From Deltaproteobacteria bacterium RIFOXYD12_FULL_56_24 (GTDB lineage Bacteria > Desulfobacterota > Desulfobulbia > Desulfobulbales > Desulfurivibrionaceae): a DNA stretch of 64,000 nucleotides. Of the stretch, positions 1-38,653 are shown in pieces. A program made the position numbers and the translations under genes. Location: positions 3,699-67,698 of the forward strand of contig MGTD01000008.1 in the NCBI GenBank assembly GCA_001799285.1. Direction: 5' to 3'. A model generated the notes under the pieces. The model did not search any database and was not told the origin of the DNA. It saw nothing but the letters and a program-made list of their open reading frames with translations. Position 1 is the stretch's first letter. Each line of letters begins with the position of its first letter.

Positions 1-131
1 ACGCCCTGGGTCATCATGGGGGCGGTAATCATGAAAATGATCAGCAGTACCAGCATGACGTCGACCAACGGGGTGACGTTGATATCCGAAACAAGTCGTT
101 TTTTACTGTTGCCGTCTTCGACCGGACCCAT
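1..131 (-). CDS. tolR: TolR/ExbD biopolymer transport protein (5' part, runs off window edge)
   Basis: Manual translation of minus strand from ATG at 131: [43 protein letters not shown], with the ExbD/TolR signature [18 protein letters not shown]; lies downstream of tolQ. Confidence 0.9.
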
Positions 132-379: not shown

Positions 380-1084
380 TCAGCTCTGGCGGGAAATGAA
401 GTCCCGCTCCACGAGGTTGAGGAAGTCAACGGAAAAGCTGTGCATCCGGCTTTCGATCTCAGCCATCTGGTTGGAATAATAATTATAAAAAACTACGGCG
501 GGGATTGCCACGGCAAGGCCTGCCGCCGTAACGACCAGAGCCTCGGAAACACCGGGCGCCACAACGGCCAGCGAGGCTGAACCGCGCAGGCCGATCTCAT
601 GGAAAGAGGACATGATGCCCCAGACCGTGCCGAAAAGACCGATAAACGGAGCGGTGCTACCGGTGGTGGCCAGAAAGGAGAGTGACTTGGCGAGACGGGC
701 AGATTCGAGATTTTCCGCCTTGCGCAAAGCTCTTTTCAGAGGTTCCATGCCAGCAAGACGTGCTTCCAGGGTTTCATCTGTGGCACTGCGGGAAGTGGCG
801 GTGGTTTTGCCTAATTTCTGCAGCTCATGATAGCCGGTTCTGAAAATATTTGCCTCGGGACACATGGTCAGGTTATTGGCAAATCGGACGGCTTCCGAAA
901 GATTTTTGCTCTGCCAGAAGGTCTCAAGAAATTCCTCGCTTTCCAATCCTGCCTTCTTGAACAGGGAAAATTTTTGGAAAACAATGAACCACGAGTACAA
1001 AGAGAAGCAGAGCAACAGGATCATGACAAATTTGACTGTGAGTCCGGCGCCCAGAAACATTGAAATAATATTAAGCTCTCCCAC
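380..1084 (-). CDS. tolQ: TolQ/ExbB/MotA proton channel protein
   Basis: Motifs LATTGSTAPFIGLFGTVWGIM and APGVSEALVVTAAGLAVAIPAV; adjacent to tolR. Confidence 0.92.
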   Translation of the reverse strand: MGELNIISMFLGAGLTVKFVMILLLCFSLYSWFIVFQKFSLFKKAGLESEEFLETFWQSKNLSEAVRFANNLTMCPEANIFRTGYHELQKLGKTTATSRSATDETLEARLAGMEPLKRALRKAENLESARLAKSLSFLATTGSTAPFIGLFGTVWGIMSSFHEIGLRGSASLAVVAPGVSEALVVTAAGLAVAIPAVVFYNYYSNQMAEIESRMHSFSVDFLNLVERDFISRQS

Positions 1085-14626: not shown

Positions 14627-14833
14627 GTAACTATCCAGCTCAAGGCCGGAAACGAACAAAAACAACCCAAACCGTAACTATTCAGCAGTGCCGTAGCTGC
14701 TAGGCAGAAGCCTGCGATGTGTGCTTGCGCCCATGAGAAGGCTGATATAGCTGAGTTGAGCAGCTTGCCTGCTCAAACGAAACTTATACCCTCTGGGTGC
14801 AACAACGCAGATGCGGTGCTGCTGGATAGTTAC
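14627..14833. repeat. Composite miniature element (D + B-type module) with a nested family A unit at about 14748-14801
   Basis: Perfect 13 bp terminal inverted repeats GTAACTATCCAGC / GCTGGATAGTTAC; inverted copy lacking the A unit at 53999-54151. Confidence 0.88.
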
Positions 14834-29111: not shown

Positions 29112-29999
29112 ATGAGTGCCAAGATTATCAGCGGGACGGAAGTTGCCAAAGCCATCCGGGAAGAATTGCAGGCCGAGGTCGCCGTGCTTAAGGAGAAACA
29201 TGATATTGTCCCTGGCCTGGTGACGATCCTGGTGGGTGAAGATCCGGCCTCTCAATCTTACGTGAGCGCCAAAAACAAGACTGCCCATGCGCTCGGCATC
29301 CATTCCGAGCAGGTAACCTTGCCAGCCGACACCAGCGAGCAGGATCTTCTGTCCATTGTCGAGAAATTTAACAAGGACAAGAATATCCACGGCATTCTCG
29401 TGCAGCTGCCCCTGCCCAAGCATATTAATGAAACCAATGTGTTATATGCCATTGATCCGGCCAAGGACGTGGATGGATTTCATCCGGTGAATGTGGGCAA
29501 GATGGTGGTGGGCGAGGAGTGCTTTCTGCCCTGCACGCCCCACGGCATCCTCGAGCTGCTGATTCGCAGCGGGGTGGAAACCAGCGGCGCAGAGGTGGTG
29601 GTCATCGGACGCAGTAATATTGTCGGCAAGCCCATCGCCAACCTGATGCTTCAGAAGCGTAAAGGCGGCAACGCCACGGTTACCCTGTGCCATACCCGGA
29701 CCAAGGACATGGCCGCCCATTGCAAGCGTGCTGATATTATCATCGCCGCGGTCGGGGTGCCGAAGATGGTGACCGCCGACATGGTGAAGGACGGGGTGGT
29801 GATAATCGATGTCGGGGTGAACCGGATTGGTAAGACCGCGGACGGCAAGGCCATTCTTGCCGGGGATGTGGATTTTGATGCGGTAAAGGAAAAAGCCTCG
29901 TATATTACCCCTGTTCCGGGGGGGGTCGGGCCGATGACCATCACCATGCTTATGAAAAATACCGTACAGGCAGCCAGGCAGACCGCGAGCCTGAAATAG
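29112..29999 (+). CDS. folD: Methylene-THF dehydrogenase/cyclohydrolase
   Basis: GILVQLPLP, KDVDGFHP, PCTPHG, IGRSNIVGKP, TPVPGGVGPMT. Confidence 0.97.
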   Translation: MSAKIISGTEVAKAIREELQAEVAVLKEKHDIVPGLVTILVGEDPASQSYVSAKNKTAHALGIHSEQVTLPADTSEQDLLSIVEKFNKDKNIHGILVQLPLPKHINETNVLYAIDPAKDVDGFHPVNVGKMVVGEECFLPCTPHGILELLIRSGVETSGAEVVVIGRSNIVGKPIANLMLQKRKGGNATVTLCHTRTKDMAAHCKRADIIIAAVGVPKMVTADMVKDGVVIIDVGVNRIGKTADGKAILAGDVDFDAVKEKASYITPVPGGVGPMTITMLMKNTVQAARQTASLK

Positions 30000-30178: not shown

Positions 30179-32176
30179 ATGGCGATCAAACGAAATGGAT
30201 GTGAAGGATGCGCGGATATCACCTGCGTTTCTACGCAACAGATTATCTCCCATGATGTGGCCAAAAACGTCAGGACTGCCTATGACCGTGTAAAGGCGCG
30301 GGGGATGTCGGCATGTTTGTTCGGTTCCGGCGGAACCTGTTGCCGTAACTGCAACATGGGGCCGTGCCAGATCATCGACGGGGTGGAAGATATGGTTGGC
30401 GTTTGCGGCGCCACCGCCGATACTGTGGCGGCCAGGAATTTTGCCCGTACCGTGGCCGGCGGTTCAGCCGCGCACACCGATCATGCCCGGGAGATGGTAA
30501 AGGGCTTCATCGGTGCAGCCAAAGGTGAGGGGCCGCATCAGATCAAAGACGTGGCCAAGCTCAAAAAGCTGGCCGAGGTTTATGATATTGTTACCGAAGG
30601 CAGGGAGGTAAAGGACATCGCCTTGGAGTTGGGGGAAAAGGCCCTGGCCGAATTCGGCAAGCAGGACGATGCGCCTCTTTCCATGCTGAAACGGGCTACG
30701 CCCAAGCGGCAGGCTCTCTGGAACAAACTCGGCATCGCGCCCCGCGGCATTGACCGCGAGGTGGTTGAAATGATGCATCGCACCCATATGGGCGTTGATC
30801 AGGAATATCACAACATTATGCTCCAGGCCTCCCGCACCGCCTTGTCCGACGGCTGGGGGGCCTCGATGCTCTCCACCGAGCTGACCGACATCATGTTCGG
30901 CACTCCGGTGCCCCGTCGCGCCATCGTTGATATTGGGGTGCTGAAGGCCGACCAGGTCAATATCACCGTGCATGGCCATGAACCTTTGCTGGCCGAGGCT
31001 TTGTGCCTTGCGGCCCAGGAACCGGAAATGCTGGAGCTGGCCAAAAAGAACGGGGCCAAGGGGATCAACTTGGCCGGCGTCTGCTGCACCGGCAACGAGA
31101 TTCTCATGCGCCGCGGGATTCCGGTGGCCGGAGGTTTCGTCCAGCAGGAGATGGTTCTGGCCACCGGCGCGGTAGAGGCGATGGTGGTTGATGTCCAGTG
31201 CGTCATGCAGTCCGTGGCCGAGGTGGCCAAGAATTTTCACACCGACATCATTACCACCAACTATCGGGCCAAGATGCCCGGCGGTATTCATATCCAGTTT
31301 GAGGAGCACGAAGCGCTTGAGTCAGCCAGAAAAATTCTGACCCACGCCATCAAGAACTTCAAGAAGCGCGGCAAGTGCTTTATCCCTCAGGAAACCAAGA
31401 TGGATGTGGTAGTGGGTTTCAGTCACGAAACCATCAATACCATGTTGGGCGGACGATTCCGCGCCAGCTACCGGCCGCTGAACGATAACATCATCAATGG
31501 CAGGATCCGCGGAGTGGCTGCCATTGTCGGCTGCGACAACTTCAAGCTGGCGGATGACACCCATGAAATCATCGTCAGGGAGTTGCTGAAAAACAACATC
31601 CTCGTTCTGGCCACCGGTTGTGCTGCAACCTCCCTCGGCAAGGCCGGCCTGGTCAATCCCGAAGCGGCCCGTTTCTGCGGCGACTCCTTGCGGGAGGTCT
31701 GCGAGACTGTGGGAATGCCGCCGGTTCTGCACATGGGTTCCTGTGTAGACAACTCACGGATTCTTATTGCCGCCACCGAGATGGTGCGGCAGGGCGGCTT
31801 GGGAGACGATATCTCCGACTTGCCCGCCATCGGCACCGCCCCCTTGTGGATGAGTGAAAAGGCCGTGGCCATCGGCCAATATTTTGTGGCCAGCGGCGCT
31901 CAGGTGGTGTTTCAGAATCTAGCCACCTCCGGGGCCAAGAATTTCACCAAGTATCTTACCGAAGGGTTGACGAGCGAGGTTGGCGCCCATTGGAATATTG
32001 CCTCGGAACCTTTGGAGATCGCCAGGATCATGATCGAAAAGATCGAGGAAAAACGTGATGCCCTGGGGATCAACAAGAAGAAAGAGCGTGTTCTTTTTGA
32101 CATGAACATGCGGCGCGACCTTGGCGGCGGCGGTCTGACGGACGTTGGTTGCCATGGCCCGGGTGTCGTCTCTTAA
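30179..32176 (+). CDS. cooS: Anaerobic Ni-CO dehydrogenase catalytic subunit
   Basis: CCRNCNMGPC B-cluster, HGHEP, GVCCTGNE, VDVQC, GCDN, TGCA, HMGSCVDNSR, WMSEKA. Confidence 0.97.
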   Translation: MAIKRNGCEGCADITCVSTQQIISHDVAKNVRTAYDRVKARGMSACLFGSGGTCCRNCNMGPCQIIDGVEDMVGVCGATADTVAARNFARTVAGGSAAHTDHAREMVKGFIGAAKGEGPHQIKDVAKLKKLAEVYDIVTEGREVKDIALELGEKALAEFGKQDDAPLSMLKRATPKRQALWNKLGIAPRGIDREVVEMMHRTHMGVDQEYHNIMLQASRTALSDGWGASMLSTELTDIMFGTPVPRRAIVDIGVLKADQVNITVHGHEPLLAEALCLAAQEPEMLELAKKNGAKGINLAGVCCTGNEILMRRGIPVAGGFVQQEMVLATGAVEAMVVDVQCVMQSVAEVAKNFHTDIITTNYRAKMPGGIHIQFEEHEALESARKILTHAIKNFKKRGKCFIPQETKMDVVVGFSHETINTMLGGRFRASYRPLNDNIINGRIRGVAAIVGCDNFKLADDTHEIIVRELLKNNILVLATGCAATSLGKAGLVNPEAARFCGDSLREVCETVGMPPVLHMGSCVDNSRILIAATEMVRQGGLGDDISDLPAIGTAPLWMSEKAVAIGQYFVASGAQVVFQNLATSGAKNFTKYLTEGLTSEVGAHWNIASEPLEIARIMIEKIEEKRDALGINKKKERVLFDMNMRRDLGGGGLTDVGCHGPGVVS

Positions 32177-32198
32177 TATTTTTTTGAAGCAAGAATAA

Positions 32199-32250
32199 AG
32201 CTGAGTTGAGCAGCTTGCCTGCTCAAACGAAACTTATACCCTTTGGGTGA
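32199..32250 (+). repeat. Repeat family A, short form
   Basis: AGCTGAGTTGAGCAGCTTGCCTGCTCAAACGAAACTTATACCCTTTGGGTG between cooS and metF-acsD. Confidence 0.88.
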
Positions 32251-32265
32251 AAAGGATCATAACCG

Positions 32266-34911
32266 ATGAAATCGGGAAGCCGTTTAGAACGCATTTTAAC
32301 ATCAGGAGTGTTCGCCGTCACCGGCGAGCTGGGGCCGCCCAAGAACGGCAATGCCGAACTGGTGCGGGAAAAAGCCCGGCTGCTTAAAGGGAGTGTTGAC
32401 GCGGTCAACATCACCGACTGCCAGACCGCCATCGTCCGCATGTCCAGCATCAGCGCAGGCCTTTTGACCCTGGCCGAGGGGGTGGAACCGGTCATTCAGA
32501 TGACCTGCCGCGACCGCAACCGGATCGGGATGCAGAGCGATATCCTGGGCGCTGCCGCCCTGGGGCTCAAAAACCTGCTCTGCCTTACCGGCGACCATCA
32601 GAAGTTCGGCAATCATCCCGGCTCAAAAGGCGTCTTTGACATGGACTCCATCCAGCTGCTTGGCATGGTGAAGTCCATGCGGGATGAAAAGATATTTCAG
32701 TCCGGCGAGGTGATCAAGTCGCACGAGCCCCGGTTATTTCTCGGCGCTGCGGCAAACCCGTTTGCCGGGCCGTCCGAGCAGTTCCGGGCCGCGCGGCTGG
32801 CAAAAAAGGTCGCCAACGGCGCTGATTTCGTCCAGACCCAAATCATCTACAATGTGGAACGATTCGCTCGTTTCATGCAGGCGGTCCGCGATCTCGGTCT
32901 CCATAAAAAAGTCCACATCCTGGCCGGCGTTACCCCGCCAAGATCCTTGGGTATGGCCCGTTACATGCAGAGTTCCGTGCCGGGCATGGATGTCACCGAT
33001 GAGGTGATCAAGCGGATGCAGGGGGCCAAGGACAAGGAAGACGAGGGGATCAACATCTGTGTTGATATCATCCGCCAGGTTCGGGAGATGGAAGGGGTGG
33101 CCGGGGTTCATATCATGGCCATTGAATGGGAGAGCGCTGTGCCGGAGATTGTCAGCCGGGCAGGGCTCGCCAGCCGCCCGGTCTTTGCCGATGAGCCTTT
33201 TGCCCTTGTGCCTTCGGCGGTAACGCCGGCTGCGCCAATTGAGGTTCGGACCACGGTGGCCGGGGTTGAGGAAAGTGATGCTCTCTTGGCGGCAGCCAAG
33301 ATTGAGGCAGAGAAGATTATCGCCGCGGCCAGGGCCGAGGCTGCTCAGTTCCGTGCGTCAGCCGCGACTGGCGGCAGCGGAGCCGGAGCGGTTGCTCAGG
33401 CAATGATTGAAACAGACGAAGCAGGAGAGGATGCGATGAACGAAAAAGAACGGCAAATGGCGCTTGACTCGGTACGGCTTGGTCTTGATGCGCTGAAAAA
33501 GGCCTACGGCTTGTCGGACGATCAATTTGATGCCCTGGTGAAATTTGCCGGGGCCGAGGCTATCCTTAAGCGCGAACCGGTACTCGCCGCGCCTGCTTCT
33601 TCAGCACCCACTCCGGTTGCCCCTGCGCCGATGGCTCCAGCGCCGGTCCATGACGAGAGTGTAGCCAAGAAGGCGGCCGAGGAGAAGGCAGCGGCAGAGG
33701 CCAAAAAGGCGGAAGCTGCCAAGAAAGCAGCCGAGGAGAAGGCGGCGGCAGAAGCCAAGCAGGCGGAGGCGGCGAAAAAAGCTGCCGAGGCAGCGGCCGC
33801 CGATGAGGCGAAGAAGGCGGAAGCCGCCAAGAAAGCCGCCGAGGAGAAGGCGGAGGCAGAGGTCAAAAAAGCCGCCGCTCCTGCACCGAAAAAAGCCAGC
33901 CCGGCCACTGCTGCGGTTGGCGCGGCTGAGCTCACCCTGGAAAAAACGGTTTTGCGCGAACGGGCCGCCAAGGTCCCCGAAGCTTCCTACAAGCAGGCAT
34001 ATACCGGCGCCATCCGCCAGACCGTTTTAGGCGACGCAGCGAGCGGCATCAAGGTGGGCGGGGCAAATACCCTGTCGTTTCATCTCTTTGAAGGCGCCAT
34101 GCCCAACCGGCCCCAGATAGCCTTTGATGTTCTTGATGTCAAACCAGACGAATGGCCCGACACCCTGGCCCGTCATTATCAGGATGTTCTGGATAATCCC
34201 CTGGCCTGGGCGCAAAAATGCGTCAAGGAATATGGGGCGGACGCCATCTGTCTCTCCATGGTCAGCACCGACCCCAACGGCTTGAACCGGCCGGCTGGGG
34301 AGGCGGCCAAGGCTGCGGCCGAGGTGGTCAAAAACATTGAGGTGCCGGTCATTGTCTGGGGTTGCGGCAACGGCGAAAAGGATACGGAGACCCTGCGGGA
34401 GATCACCTCGCTGATCGGCGACAAGAAGGTCTGCCTGGCGCCGCTTTCCGACAGCAACTACCGGGCCATCGGCGCCACGGCCATGGCCTTCCAGTATCCA
34501 ATGGTCGCCGCCTCGCCCATTGACGTGAATCTGGCCAAACAACTCAATATCCTGCTGGAGAATCTCGGAGTCTCCCTGGATTCCGTGTTGATCGATCCCT
34601 CCATCGGCGCCCTTGGCTACGGCATCGAATACACCTACTCCGTCATGGAACGTATTCGCCTTGCCGCGCTGACCCAGAAAGACGAGAAGCTCCAGGTGCC
34701 TTTTATCTGCAACCTGGGACGTGAGGTCTGGAAGGCCAAGGAATGTCGCTTGCCCACCGACGAGATGATCGGTGATCAGGAGACCCGCGGCATTCTCATG
34801 GAGGCGATTACCGCTTCCATCATGCTGATGGCGGGCGGCGAACTGATGATCATGCGGCATCCGCGGGCGGTTGCTCTCACCAAGTCGCTGATCACCGGGC
34901 TTATGGGCTGA
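32266..34911 (+). CDS. metF-acsD: Methylene-THF reductase (MetF) fused to corrinoid Fe-S protein small subunit (AcsD) through an Ala/Lys/Glu-rich linker
   Basis: N-terminal VTGELGPPK, QMTCRDRNR, NLLCLTGDH, GADFVQTQ; C-terminal IDPSIGALGYGIEY, ICNLGREVWK, MRHP. Confidence 0.88.
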   Translation: MKSGSRLERILTSGVFAVTGELGPPKNGNAELVREKARLLKGSVDAVNITDCQTAIVRMSSISAGLLTLAEGVEPVIQMTCRDRNRIGMQSDILGAAALGLKNLLCLTGDHQKFGNHPGSKGVFDMDSIQLLGMVKSMRDEKIFQSGEVIKSHEPRLFLGAAANPFAGPSEQFRAARLAKKVANGADFVQTQIIYNVERFARFMQAVRDLGLHKKVHILAGVTPPRSLGMARYMQSSVPGMDVTDEVIKRMQGAKDKEDEGINICVDIIRQVREMEGVAGVHIMAIEWESAVPEIVSRAGLASRPVFADEPFALVPSAVTPAAPIEVRTTVAGVEESDALLAAAKIEAEKIIAAARAEAAQFRASAATGGSGAGAVAQAMIETDEAGEDAMNEKERQMALDSVRLGLDALKKAYGLSDDQFDALVKFAGAEAILKREPVLAAPASSAPTPVAPAPMAPAPVHDESVAKKAAEEKAAAEAKKAEAAKKAAEEKAAAEAKQAEAAKKAAEAAAADEAKKAEAAKKAAEEKAEAEVKKAAAPAPKKASPATAAVGAAELTLEKTVLRERAAKVPEASYKQAYTGAIRQTVLGDAASGIKVGGANTLSFHLFEGAMPNRPQIAFDVLDVKPDEWPDTLARHYQDVLDNPLAWAQKCVKEYGADAICLSMVSTDPNGLNRPAGEAAKAAAEVVKNIEVPVIVWGCGNGEKDTETLREITSLIGDKKVCLAPLSDSNYRAIGATAMAFQYPMVAASPIDVNLAKQLNILLENLGVSLDSVLIDPSIGALGYGIEYTYSVMERIRLAALTQKDEKLQVPFICNLGREVWKAKECRLPTDEMIGDQETRGILMEAITASIMLMAGGELMIMRHPRAVALTKSLITGLMG

Positions 34912-34980: not shown

Positions 34981-37185
34981 ATGTCTAAGATCATCTGTTC
35001 AGCCGCCATTCGTGGGGCTCACAAGATTGTGGATATGGCGGAGGCCAAATTCGAAGAGGCCCTCAAGAAGTACGGCCCCGAACAGGAGGTTGGTTTTCCC
35101 AACACCGCCTACTTTTTGCCGATTATTTACAGCATGCTGGGTGCCAAGGTGCAGAATCTCGGCGACATGAAGGATATTTTCCGGGAATGCCGCACCCTTT
35201 TACCGCAAGAGGTGAGCAACAACACCTGGCTGCCGTACCTCGCCCCGGCCTTGGATGCGGGCATGGCCACCTTTTTTGCCGAGGAGATGTACGAGGCCAT
35301 CCGCTATCTCGAGACCCCGGATTTTTATACCAAGACCGAAGATCCGCTGGAGAACAACATCTGGCTGGGCGCTGCCGACGACGTAATCTTCCGTAAGCGC
35401 GGCGTTGAGTTCGTGGACGGCACGGCACCCGGTTTTGCCGCCATCATGGGCACTCCGGACGACAATGAGGTTGCCTCACGGATCGCCCTTGAGCTCCAGG
35501 AGAAGAATCTCTACATCTTCATGCACGACCAGAGTAACGGCAAGAACATGGCCGAACGGTTGATGGAAAACAAGGTGCAGGTCGGCTGGAACACCAGGCT
35601 GGTGCCCTTTGGCAAGAGTTACACCTCGGCGGTCTTCGCAATCGGCTTTGCCTGCCGGGTGGCCATGGCTTTCGGCGGCATCAAGCCCGGCGACTACCGG
35701 GGCAACCTGATCTACAATAAAGACCGGACCTTTGCCTTTATCATGGCCTTTGGACCGGTTTCCGACGAGTGGTACGCCAATGCGGCCGGCGCCATCAACT
35801 GGGGATTTCCCACCATCTCCGACTATGATATTCCCCAGGTGCTACCCACCGGGATCTGCACCTACGAACACGTGGTCAGCCAGGTGCCCCACGCGGAGAT
35901 CGTCCAGAAGGCCATTGAGGTGCGAGGCCTCAAGGTCAACGTCACCAAGATCGACATCCCCATGTCCTTCGGCCCGGCCTTTGAGGGCGAGCGGATTCGC
36001 AAGGACGACCTCTTCATGGAATGCGGCGGCGGCCGGACTTCCGCGGTGGAGGTGCTGATTTCCAAGGAGATGTCTGAGGTGGAGGACGGCAAGGTTACCA
36101 TCGAAGGCCCGGATATCAAGGACATCGAGCAGGGCAAAAATCTGCCTATCGCCATTCTGGTTGAGGTTGCCGGGCGCGGGATGCAGTCGGACTTCGAACC
36201 GATCCTCGAGCGCCAGTTCCATCACCTGATGAACTACATCCAGGGCATCATGCACATGGGCCAGCGGAACATCATGTGGATCCGCATCGGCAAGGCTGCG
36301 GTGGAAAAGGGCTTTTCCTTCACCCATCTCGGCAAGGTGCTGCACGGCAAGCTGCATCAGGAGTTCGGCGCCATTGTCGACAAAATCCAGGTCAAGATTT
36401 ACACCGAACTGGACAAGGTGGAAGAGGTCCAGGAGTTGGCCCGCAAGGTGTACGCGGAGCGCGATGAGCGTCTTGGTTCCATGACCGACGAGACCGAGGA
36501 GATTTTCTACTCCTGTACCCTGTGTCAATCTTTTGCTCCGAGCCATGTCTGCGTAATCACCCCGGAGCGGATCGGCATGTGCGGCGCTTATAACTGGCTG
36601 GACGGCAAGGCCTCCTTTCAGATTAACCCCACCGGTCCCAATCAGCCGATCCAGAAGGGTGATTGCCTGGATGAGAAACTCGGCATCTTCAAGGGAATCA
36701 ACGATTTTGTCGAGCAGACTTCCCGCGGGGCTGTGCCCGAACTTGCCCTCTATTCCCTGATGAACAGCCCGATGACCGCCTGCGGCTGTTTCGAGGCCAT
36801 TGCCGCCATGCTCCCCCAATGCAACGGGATCATGGTGGTCAACCGTGACTTCAGCGGCATGACCCCTTCCGGGATGAAGTTCACCACCTTGGCCGGCATG
36901 GCGGGCGGCGGCGCCCAGACCCCTGGTTTTATCGGGGTTTCCAAGCATTTTATGACCAGTCCCAAGCTGTTTGTCGCCGAGGGTGGGCTCAAGCGGATGG
37001 TCTGGCTTCCCAAGATGATGAAGGAAGAGATCAAGGACAAGCTCATGCAGCGCTGCAAGGAAATAGGCATGCCGGAGTTTTACGACATGATCGCCACAGA
37101 GGAGAACGGCACCACGGAAGAGGAAATCCTCGCCTTCATGAAAAAGGTCGGTCATCCGGCTCTGGAAATGGAATCCGTTGTTTAA
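34981..37185 (+). CDS. acsB: Acetyl-CoA synthase subunit
   Basis: GFPNTAYFLP, CTLCQSFAPSHVC, CGAYNW, PMTACGCFE A-cluster ligands. Confidence 0.97.
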   Translation: MSKIICSAAIRGAHKIVDMAEAKFEEALKKYGPEQEVGFPNTAYFLPIIYSMLGAKVQNLGDMKDIFRECRTLLPQEVSNNTWLPYLAPALDAGMATFFAEEMYEAIRYLETPDFYTKTEDPLENNIWLGAADDVIFRKRGVEFVDGTAPGFAAIMGTPDDNEVASRIALELQEKNLYIFMHDQSNGKNMAERLMENKVQVGWNTRLVPFGKSYTSAVFAIGFACRVAMAFGGIKPGDYRGNLIYNKDRTFAFIMAFGPVSDEWYANAAGAINWGFPTISDYDIPQVLPTGICTYEHVVSQVPHAEIVQKAIEVRGLKVNVTKIDIPMSFGPAFEGERIRKDDLFMECGGGRTSAVEVLISKEMSEVEDGKVTIEGPDIKDIEQGKNLPIAILVEVAGRGMQSDFEPILERQFHHLMNYIQGIMHMGQRNIMWIRIGKAAVEKGFSFTHLGKVLHGKLHQEFGAIVDKIQVKIYTELDKVEEVQELARKVYAERDERLGSMTDETEEIFYSCTLCQSFAPSHVCVITPERIGMCGAYNWLDGKASFQINPTGPNQPIQKGDCLDEKLGIFKGINDFVEQTSRGAVPELALYSLMNSPMTACGCFEAIAAMLPQCNGIMVVNRDFSGMTPSGMKFTTLAGMAGGGAQTPGFIGVSKHFMTSPKLFVAEGGLKRMVWLPKMMKEEIKDKLMQRCKEIGMPEFYDMIATEENGTTEEEILAFMKKVGHPALEMESVV

Positions 37186-37297: not shown

Positions 37298-38653
37298 ATG
37301 GCTTTAACAGGTATTCAAATCCTCAAAATGCTCCCCAAGAAAAACTGTGGGGAGTGCGGTATTCCGACCTGTCTCGCCTTTGCCATGAAGGTGGCGGCCG
37401 GGCAGATGGAAATTGGCGAATGCCCGTATGTGAGCGATGAGGTCAAGGAGCAGATCGGTGAGGCTTCCGCCCCTCCGATCCGGACTGTTAAAATCGGCAC
37501 CGGGGACAGCGCCTATACCACCGGCGGCGAAACCTGTCTCTTTCGCCATGAAAAGCGTTTCGAGAACCCCACCGGCATAGCGGTGCTGGTTACCACGGAG
37601 ATGAACGAGGCCGAGGTCGAGGGGAGGATCAGCCGGTTCAAGAGCCTCCGTTACGAGCGGGTCGGCGTTCTGCTCAAGGCCGACCTGATCGCGGTCAAGG
37701 ACAGCAAGGGCGATGCTGCCGCCTTTACCGCCCTGACCAGGATGGTACTGGATGGCGCCCCCGATGCCGGACTCATCCTGATGAGCGACAATCCCGATAA
37801 CCTCAAGGCAGGTGCTGCCGCCTGCGGGGAACGCAAGCCGCTCCTTTATGCCGCCACCGCTGCCAATGCTGAGGCCATGGCTGCTGTGGCCAAGGAGACC
37901 GGCTGCCCACTGGTTGCCAAGGGTGTAAACCTTGACGAGACCGTGGCGATTTCCGAGAAACTGCTGGCCGCCGGGCTCAAGGATTTGATGCTCGACAGCG
38001 GCGCCCGCACCATTCGGGCCGCCATGGAAGACAGCGTGGTGGGCCGGCGTTCCGCCATCCGGGCCAAATTCAAGCCTCTGGGTTTTCCGACCATCACCTT
38101 TCCCTGTGAGATCTCCACTGATCCGCTGATGGAGGCCATGGTCGCCTCGGTGCTTATTGCCAAATACGCCGGGATCATCGTTCTCTCCGACCTTCAGGGC
38201 GATATCCTCTTCCCACTGTTGCTGGAGCGGCTCAATCTCTTCACCGATCCGCAGCGGCCCATGGTGGTTCAGGAAGACGTCTACAACATCAACGGCCCAA
38301 CCGAAGATTCCCCGGTGCTGATCACCTGTAATTTCTCCCTTACCTACTTCATCGTCTCGGGCGAGATTGAGGGGAGTAAGGTGCCTTCCTGGCTGCTGAT
38401 TAAGGATACGGAAGGGCTTTCGGTTCTAACTGCCTGGGCGGCCGGCAAGTTCGGCGCGGACATGATCGCGGCGTTCATGAAGAAGTCCGGAATCGAGAGC
38501 AAGGTCAAGCATCGGGAGCTCATTATCCCCGGTTACTTGGCCTCCATGAAGGGCGAGCTTGAGGAAGAGCTGGCCGGCTGGACCATTACCATCGGTCCCC
38601 GCGAAGCCGGACATCTTCCTGCCTTTTTGAAGGAATGGAAGCCAGCGGCATGA
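37298..38653 (+). CDS. acsC: Corrinoid Fe-S protein large subunit
   Basis: LPKKNCGECGIPTCLAFA FeS motif, ITCNFSLTYF, GLSVLTAWAAGKF. Confidence 0.97.
   Translation: MALTGIQILKMLPKKNCGECGIPTCLAFAMKVAAGQMEIGECPYVSDEVKEQIGEASAPPIRTVKIGTGDSAYTTGGETCLFRHEKRFENPTGIAVLVTTEMNEAEVEGRISRFKSLRYERVGVLLKADLIAVKDSKGDAAAFTALTRMVLDGAPDAGLILMSDNPDNLKAGAAACGERKPLLYAATAANAEAMAAVAKETGCPLVAKGVNLDETVAISEKLLAAGLKDLMLDSGARTIRAAMEDSVVGRRSAIRAKFKPLGFPTITFPCEISTDPLMEAMVASVLIAKYAGIIVLSDLQGDILFPLLLERLNLFTDPQRPMVVQEDVYNINGPTEDSPVLITCNFSLTYFIVSGEIEGSKVPSWLLIKDTEGLSVLTAWAAGKFGADMIAAFMKKSGIESKVKHRELIIPGYLASMKGELEEELAGWTITIGPREAGHLPAFLKEWKPAA

Follow-up and report, generated by a model that had tools for sequence, protein, structure and literature searches.

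Comparative evidence for a probable internal translation start in the mthfr/acsD fusion gene of Desulfobulbales

IF2-beta, ClpB-79 and CheA-S are proteins made by initiation at an in-frame start inside a longer gene. ArcB-C of Escherichia coli is likewise the C-terminal product of in-frame internal initiation (Meydan et al., bioRxiv 10.1101/520783), and conserved starts together with local synonymous constraint serve as the comparative criteria for this class (bioRxiv 10.1101/520783). In Desulfurivibrio alkaliphilus AHT2, a gene that fuses methylenetetrahydrofolate reductase (MTHFR, MetF) to AcsD, the small subunit of the corrinoid iron-sulfur protein (CFeSP), was named "mthfr/acsD" (Melton et al. 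2016, Fig. 3; PMC5016858). Here we describe the corresponding gene of Deltaproteobacteria bacterium RIFOXYD12_FULL_56_24 (Desulfurivibrionaceae, assembly GCA_001799285.1), which lies within a 64,000-nucleotide (nt) stretch of contig MGTD01000008.1, called the window below and used for all positions. The gene is the normal mthfr/acsD of the order Desulfobulbales, and the fusion itself was already known; no paper mentioning an internal start in mthfr/acsD was found in full-text literature searches. Our comparison of orthologues suggests that the gene contains an internal initiation region selected at the RNA level and that one mRNA is most likely read from two starts (probability about 0.75).

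Candidate internal start within the linker of the fusion

The original prediction, made from the letters of the window, had described one frame that joins MTHFR to the CFeSP small subunit, and the 881-residue product was confirmed to match both PF02219 and PF03599. The frame is uninterrupted, orthologous to the D. alkaliphilus gene and located in the same cluster. The MTHFR TIM-barrel profile PF02219 was matched over its full length (residues 6-300 on profile positions 1-287 of 287) and above its curated cut-off (127 bits versus 24; 1e-36). Residues E21 and D110, putative catalytic and FAD-binding residues, were invariant across alignment A1 and resemble the Glu28 and Asp120 motifs of E. coli MetF. 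The alignments to MetF proteins of solved structure spanned residues 71-314 or 152-305. At the other end of the protein, the CdhD profile PF03599 matched residues 587-845 (5e-42), the score for NF003376 was 361.5 bits against a curated cut-off of 280, and residues 15-318 of the 323 in the Moorella CFeSP small subunit (4DJD chain D) were aligned at 2e-79, so that the assignment to the AcsD family rests on a score above the curated cut-off and on end-to-end alignment to solved small subunits.

The MTHFR and AcsD parts are joined by a linker of about 265 amino acids (aa), which includes a conserved helical module of 48 residues, a Pro/Ala-rich segment, a predicted long Ala/Glu/Lys-rich helix and, at residues 541-569, a lead-in to AcsD. 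The Ala/Glu/Lys helix is encoded by a 54-nt tandem repeat of 3.8 copies at 33664-33869, as detected with Tandem Repeats Finder. An AlphaFold2 model of the whole protein, built on an alignment of 20 sequences and with a mean pLDDT (predicted local distance difference test) of 54, served for rough secondary structure only. The module could not be assigned to a family: Pfam searches at E values up to 10 returned only noise-level tetratricopeptide repeat (TPR) and helix-turn-helix (HTH) matches, and the ESM Atlas returned no match. A search of 1.8 billion cluster representatives with the 68-aa module region gave seven matches, most of them short fragments.

In the middle of this linker, AGGAGAGG (33423-33430) precedes an ATG at 33436 that is in frame with the annotated start, since (33436-32266)/3 = 390; the codon is M391 and the reading from it begins MNEKERQM. 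The coordinates and the reading given for this ribosome-binding site and start in the original prediction were correct. The GGAG ends 8 nt before the ATG, which places an in-frame start downstream of a Shine-Dalgarno (SD) sequence at a working distance. One detail needs correcting: the ATG is not at the boundary of the AcsD domain, for the AcsD fold begins at about residue 570, and M391 stands 179 residues before it. The prediction had named the lack of the ribosome-binding site in homologues as part of what would refute it, but GGAGA and the ATG were present with identical spacing in all 70 orthologues compared, which range from 67 to 100% in protein identity and from 44 to 66% in gene GC content.

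Synonymous positions around this site were unusually constant. The codon of Gly387 is GGA in 67 of 67 sequences, while GGA makes up 13.7% of the Gly codons in the orthologues, and among 44 conserved Gly columns it is the sole one without synonymous variation. Synonymous entropy fell below 0.2 bits in three of 395 conserved degenerate columns, one of which is Lys2 beside the annotated start. The lowest value in the gene belonged to the seven-column window 386-396, and the window 2-14 at the annotated start ranked third. To allow for relatedness, third-base changes were counted by parsimony on a tree of the 67 sequences with a total length of 14.3 substitutions per site: Gly387 showed none, as compared to a median of 22 for 137 conserved four-fold degenerate codons, the next lowest of which had 6.

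Neighbouring codons showed similar preferences. Ala386 is encoded only by GCA or GCG, although GCC and GCT account for 67% of Ala codons, and in five of the six cases in which the residue is replaced the third base remains G, as it does with Leu, Val or Arg at this position. A purine stands directly before the Gly codon of the GGAG core in 66 of 67 genes, even where residue 386 differs. Downstream of the ATG, codons 393-395 strongly favour A-ending, A-rich forms (GAA in 59, AAA or AGA in 61 and GAA in 57 of the 67 sequences). The predicted SD pairing energy was -7.4 kcal/mol for the internal site and -5.9 kcal/mol for the annotated start, and the internal SD was the stronger of the two in 61 of 67 genes. 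A 50-nt window at the internal ATG contained 39% A (24% in the gene) and folded at -6.5 kcal/mol, relative to a gene mean of -11.8 kcal/mol. A conserved start is therefore accompanied by locally raised synonymous-site conservation, a pattern characteristic of translation initiation regions that purifying selection maintains in the RNA.

Distribution and relatives of the fusion

A protein search found both domains together in about 800 database proteins of 860-920 aa from Desulfurivibrionaceae, Desulfobulbaceae and their relatives, including D. alkaliphilus and a Candidatus Electronema genome. Of 151 genomes sampled from the order and searched in six frames, 86 had a single stop-free frame over the full query; they were spread over nearly all families and included closed genomes. 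Apparent splits of the gene lay mostly at contig ends or within the tandem repeat. Four independent metagenome runs, which were present as contigs only, yielded contigs over the open reading frame (ORF) with no indel inside it, and positions 33423-33438 were covered with zero differences in three of the four. An orthologue, P0N66_RS08750, was detected in the proteome of Desulfurivibrio dismutans, in a supplementary table that gives one value per gene (PMC12142623). Because of these intact frames and indel-free contigs, the published fusion and the proteome detection, both a recent fusion and an error of sequencing are excluded. The original prediction had allowed for a sequencing error that hides a stop codon, which is ruled out by the 86 genomes and four metagenome runs, and for a recent fusion by stop loss. 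Of the latter proposal, the idea that the fusion arose when metF lost its stop fits the unfused relatives described below, but the event was not recent, as the fusion is order-wide, occurs in two other lineages and has been in print since 2016. The fusion is the standard form in the order and is also found in two other lineages of the phylum. As a separate observation, the contigs of three metagenome runs (X2, X4 and X6) stop within a few bases of one another at about 33443-33447, just past the internal ATG; this may be a point of strain variation in the communities.

One of the two lineages, a sister group of nine genomes (Group A; loci L086-L094, proteins P0217, P0224 and P0233), has TPR-bearing fusions in which MTHFR, a coiled coil, the module, two TPR repeats, a linker and AcsD follow one another in a single frame of 1004-1174 aa. 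The module is kept there as protein and the Met is not. Directly before the module, five of the nine genomes have GGAGG or AGGAG followed by ATG or GTG, with different residues encoded. The N-terminus of AcsD seems to have served repeatedly as a site where tethers are attached.

The second lineage (Group B), a family of the phylum with genomes of 1.5-1.8 Mb, includes both fused and unfused states. The original prediction had proposed that relatives be checked for a stop codon before the internal start, and three unfused Group B genomes (L099-L101) have exactly this order: a metF of 307-337 aa with its own stop, a gap of 18-60 nt that holds an SD, and an ATG that opens a long-form acsD of 407-450 aa, whose product starts MQNEKELL... 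or MSDEKML.... In L100, MetF (308 aa) is 55% and AcsD 54% identical to the protein of the window, and the MetF sequence ends in the same Arg-Pro. Four fused members of the group retain GGAGG-N6-ATG at the position of the unfused acsD start. This pattern is what would be expected of a fusion in which the stop codon of metF was lost and the start of the following gene was kept.

Extended AcsD proteins also occurred elsewhere. In other Desulfobacterota, the AcsD match often lies in frames of 500-557 aa, and in still others in frames of about 1120-1150 aa. Two frames of 540 and 549 aa (L112, 184-1803, minus strand; L113, 1471-3117, plus strand) have the AcsD fold at the N-terminus, followed by about 200-230 C-terminal residues without a Pfam match.

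Predicted products and alternative explanations

The gene probably gives rise to a 491-aa linker-AcsD protein in addition to the 881-aa fusion, and the comparative evidence argues strongly for a functional initiation site at M391, where ribosomes would start in vivo. Translation from 32266 would yield MetF, linker and AcsD in one chain, and translation from 33436 a protein composed of the helical module, the Pro/Ala stretch, the Ala/Glu/Lys helix and AcsD. A second acsD was not found in a search of the genome's contigs; both forms would therefore be expected to pair with AcsC, the large CFeSP subunit, and thereby form the corrinoid protein. In the long form, the reductase would be held beside the methyl acceptor on a leash of about 265 residues, and, given what MTHFR and CFeSP do in the Wood-Ljungdahl pathway, such tethering would keep the production of methyltetrahydrofolate near that acceptor. 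The short form would provide corrinoid protein without reductase, and the share of corrinoid proteins that carry a tethered reductase would be determined by the strength of one start relative to the other. [quoted passage not shown]

Several observations weigh against this interpretation, and some of them could be accounted for if only the full-length fusion were made. A GGAG stands 5-10 nt upstream of 8 of the 358 internal in-frame ATGs (2.2%) in the long ORFs of the window, so that the motif in one genome is not beyond chance and its significance comes from conservation across genomes. A386, G387, E388 and M391 are also invariant as residues, and the module is conserved as protein in the outgroups that lack the Met. 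Part of the signal could thus be protein-level constraint, and the RNA-level role is argued by the synonymous positions alone. Furthermore, four of the nine Group A genomes lack a clear SD and start codon at this site, and homology between the module of Desulfobulbales and Group A and the N-terminal segment of Group B AcsD could not be demonstrated (hhalign probability 3.6%), which makes the argument for an ancestral start positional rather than sequence-based. The case for the short protein and for initiating ribosomes is comparative throughout. It is conceivable that GGAGA and ATG are kept because the module has to begin with Ala-Gly-Glu...Met for structural reasons and, in addition, because the RNA has some other role, such as a translational pause during which the MetF barrel folds before the remainder of the chain appears. 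However, we consider this unlikely. Constraint on the protein cannot explain why GGA387 shows no synonymous change where the median is 22, and it leaves unexplained both the purine that precedes GGAG in spite of changes at residue 386 and the A-ending codons that follow the ATG. Moreover, an SD and a start occur at the same place in other lineages where different residues are encoded, and in genomes without the fusion a gene actually begins at the equivalent codon.

A different possibility is that the short form comes mainly from a separate transcript, driven by a promoter within the DNA that encodes the linker, in which case its regulation could be independent. All of the comparative results are compatible with such a promoter, since the SD and ATG would be no different for a transcript that begins upstream of 33423. 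We nevertheless regard it as improbable: no sigma-70-like site was found on the plus strand between 32100 and 35050 (by a consensus scan only, which is weak evidence), and synonymous constraint is limited to about codons 386-396. The upstream linker is too variable for a test of promoter conservation. Finally, metF and acsD might really be separate genes, with the single frame an assembly or sequencing artefact or the result of a very recent stop loss. Some metagenome-assembled genomes do contain AcsD-only gene calls of 481-502 aa that start at or just past the equivalent of M391, and in a few genomes the gene is split within the repeat region, but the majority of splits coincide with contig ends or with the tandem repeat. 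This explanation was rejected and retains a negligible probability, given the uninterrupted frames in 86 of 151 genomes, closed ones included, the four independent metagenome assemblies free of indels within the ORF and the fusion published for D. alkaliphilus (PMC5016858).

A more elaborate form of the two-start model, which we regard as speculative and rather doubtful, is that the 48-aa module is a docking or oligomerisation element, by which both proteoforms co-assemble with AcsC, and perhaps with the methyltransferase, into a supercomplex of the methyl branch, with start usage tuning the ratio of MetF to corrinoid protein. If so, sulfur disproportionators and cable bacteria would possess a built-in stoichiometry control of CO2 fixation.

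Genomic setting and comparison with known systems

The gene lies in a Wood-Ljungdahl cluster that comprises a PilB/PulE-like ATPase, folD, acsA, mthfr/acsD, acsB, acsC, an NAD-linked formate dehydrogenase and an HdrA-like protein. The fusion gene is thus flanked by acsA, acsB and acsC, which encode the carbon monoxide dehydrogenase (CODH) and acetyl-CoA synthase components and the AcsC partner. The features of the gene and its neighbours are listed in Table 1.

Table 1. Positions in the window of mthfr/acsD, of its parts and of neighbouring pathway genes
Feature	Position	Strand	Basis or remark
Whole mthfr/acsD ORF	32266..34911	+	881 aa plus stop; ATG 32266, TGA 34909-34911
MTHFR (MetF) domain, residues 1-305	32266..33180	+	Pfam PF02219; identity to stand-alone MetF
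Linker 1, residues 306-385	33181..33420	+	Variable, Ala-rich; predicted helix at about 335-367 (A1, low-confidence AlphaFold2 model, composition)
Internal Shine-Dalgarno AGGAGAGG	33423..33430	+	Core GGAGA, invariant
Internal in-frame ATG (M391)	33436..33438	+	Predicted start of 491-aa proteoform
Conserved helical module, residues 391-438 (48 aa)	33436..33579	+	Conserved in alignments A1 and A2; also in TPR-bearing outgroup fusions
Pro/Ala-rich segment, residues 439-462	33580..33651	+	33% Ala, 29% Pro
Ala/Glu/Lys-rich predicted long helix, residues 463-540 (78 aa)	33652..33885	+	47% A, 23% K, 21% E; AlphaFold2 helix 466-532
AcsD (CFeSP small subunit) TIM-barrel domain, residues ~570-881	33973..34908	+	NCBIfam NF003376; 4DJD chain D match
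folD	29112..29999	+	Pfam
CODH catalytic subunit acsA/cooS	30179..32176	+	Pfam Prismane
acsB (acetyl-CoA synthase)	34981..37185	+	Pfam
acsC (CFeSP large subunit), expected partner of AcsD domain	37298..38653	+	Pfam CdhD plus FeS

The genome encodes three MTHFR homologues, namely the fusion, a canonical metF (contig C26) and a 531-aa MTHFR ORF with a MetV-type domain (PF12225). The latter is located on contig C13 (locus L075, 1414-3009, plus strand), and a separate 233-aa frame with a MetV-type domain was noted about 6 kb from it (C13:104396-104680). For the methyltransferase AcsE, which acts between MetF and the corrinoid protein, the sole candidate lies outside the acs cluster, on contig C7 (L002, 1312-2202, minus strand), and it scored below the NCBIfam cut-offs (197 bits versus 259 and 184 versus 370). 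A 360-aa frame on contig C11 (75525-75875) matched only the C-terminal third of the CdhD profile, at 45 bits, and may be another corrinoid-binding protein.

An intergenic repeat of about 55 nt with the core hairpin TTGAGCAG-cttgc-CTGCTCAA was observed at 32195-32253, at about 155-215 and at 14745-14800; the first of these copies ends about 12 nt upstream of the start codon of the fusion gene. The window contains these three copies; the 3.04-Mb genome, searched with up to two mismatches, contained 129, and a reversed control gave none. In the four metagenome runs, the summed contig depth of the repeat exceeded that of neighbouring genes by a factor of about 30 to several hundred, and a large number of contigs pass from it into unrelated sequence. 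It looks like an element of the repetitive extragenic palindromic (REP) or miniature inverted-repeat transposable element (MITE) type.

In Desulfobulbales, cable bacteria and sulfur disproportionators included, the Wood-Ljungdahl pathway is usually annotated gene by gene, and the fusion is labelled "MetF" or "subunit delta". If two products are made, tethered and untethered forms will both have to be counted when enzyme stoichiometry is modelled, when proteomes are quantified and when the pathway is reconstituted heterologously. The gene would then also offer a clear example from nature of a fusion that has kept the ribosome-binding site of the downstream gene in use over long evolution. Cultured strains exist in which the two-product reading can be tested.

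The closest described system is mthfr/acsD of D. alkaliphilus AHT2. The two proteins share the two-domain architecture and 72-75% identity, and the neighbourhoods are alike, as that strain also has a pulE-like ATPase, folD, acsA, mthfr/acsD, acsB, acsC and formate dehydrogenase. They differ in what has been described: Melton et al. 2016 (PMC5016858) names the fusion only, and the linker, the module and the internal start are absent from that account. In comparison with the solved CFeSP small subunits (310-323 aa), residues 576-880 align end to end (2e-79 and 2e-77), and acsC, the gene of the large subunit, lies further on in the cluster. In contrast, the solved subunits are free-standing, whereas the AcsD domain described here would carry an N-terminal extension of 179 aa or 569 aa, depending on the start. 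The metV-metF-long acsD arrangement of the unfused Group B genomes resembles the fusion in the identity of its MetF (55%) and AcsD (54%) and in the Arg-Pro at the end of MetF, and in the long AcsD a helical segment similarly comes first and leads into a linker of charged repeats. However, in Group B a stop and 18-60 nt lie between two genes, and no homology of the N-terminal segment to the module could be demonstrated.

With the class of internal initiation sites represented by ArcB-C, mthfr/acsD shares an SD-like sequence and AUG in frame within a longer ORF, conservation at synonymous sites and a predicted C-terminal product that lacks the N-terminal domain. It differs from that class in three respects. 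For mthfr/acsD, the evidence is of a comparative kind only, with a site that is invariant over a whole order. Moreover, the site apparently descends from the start of a once separate gene, and the part that would be released is a subunit of a different enzyme complex rather than a signalling domain. Thus, as far as comparison of the genes can tell, mthfr/acsD has an internal start in keeping with the established class, in which in-frame initiation within a gene gives rise to N-terminally truncated proteoforms.

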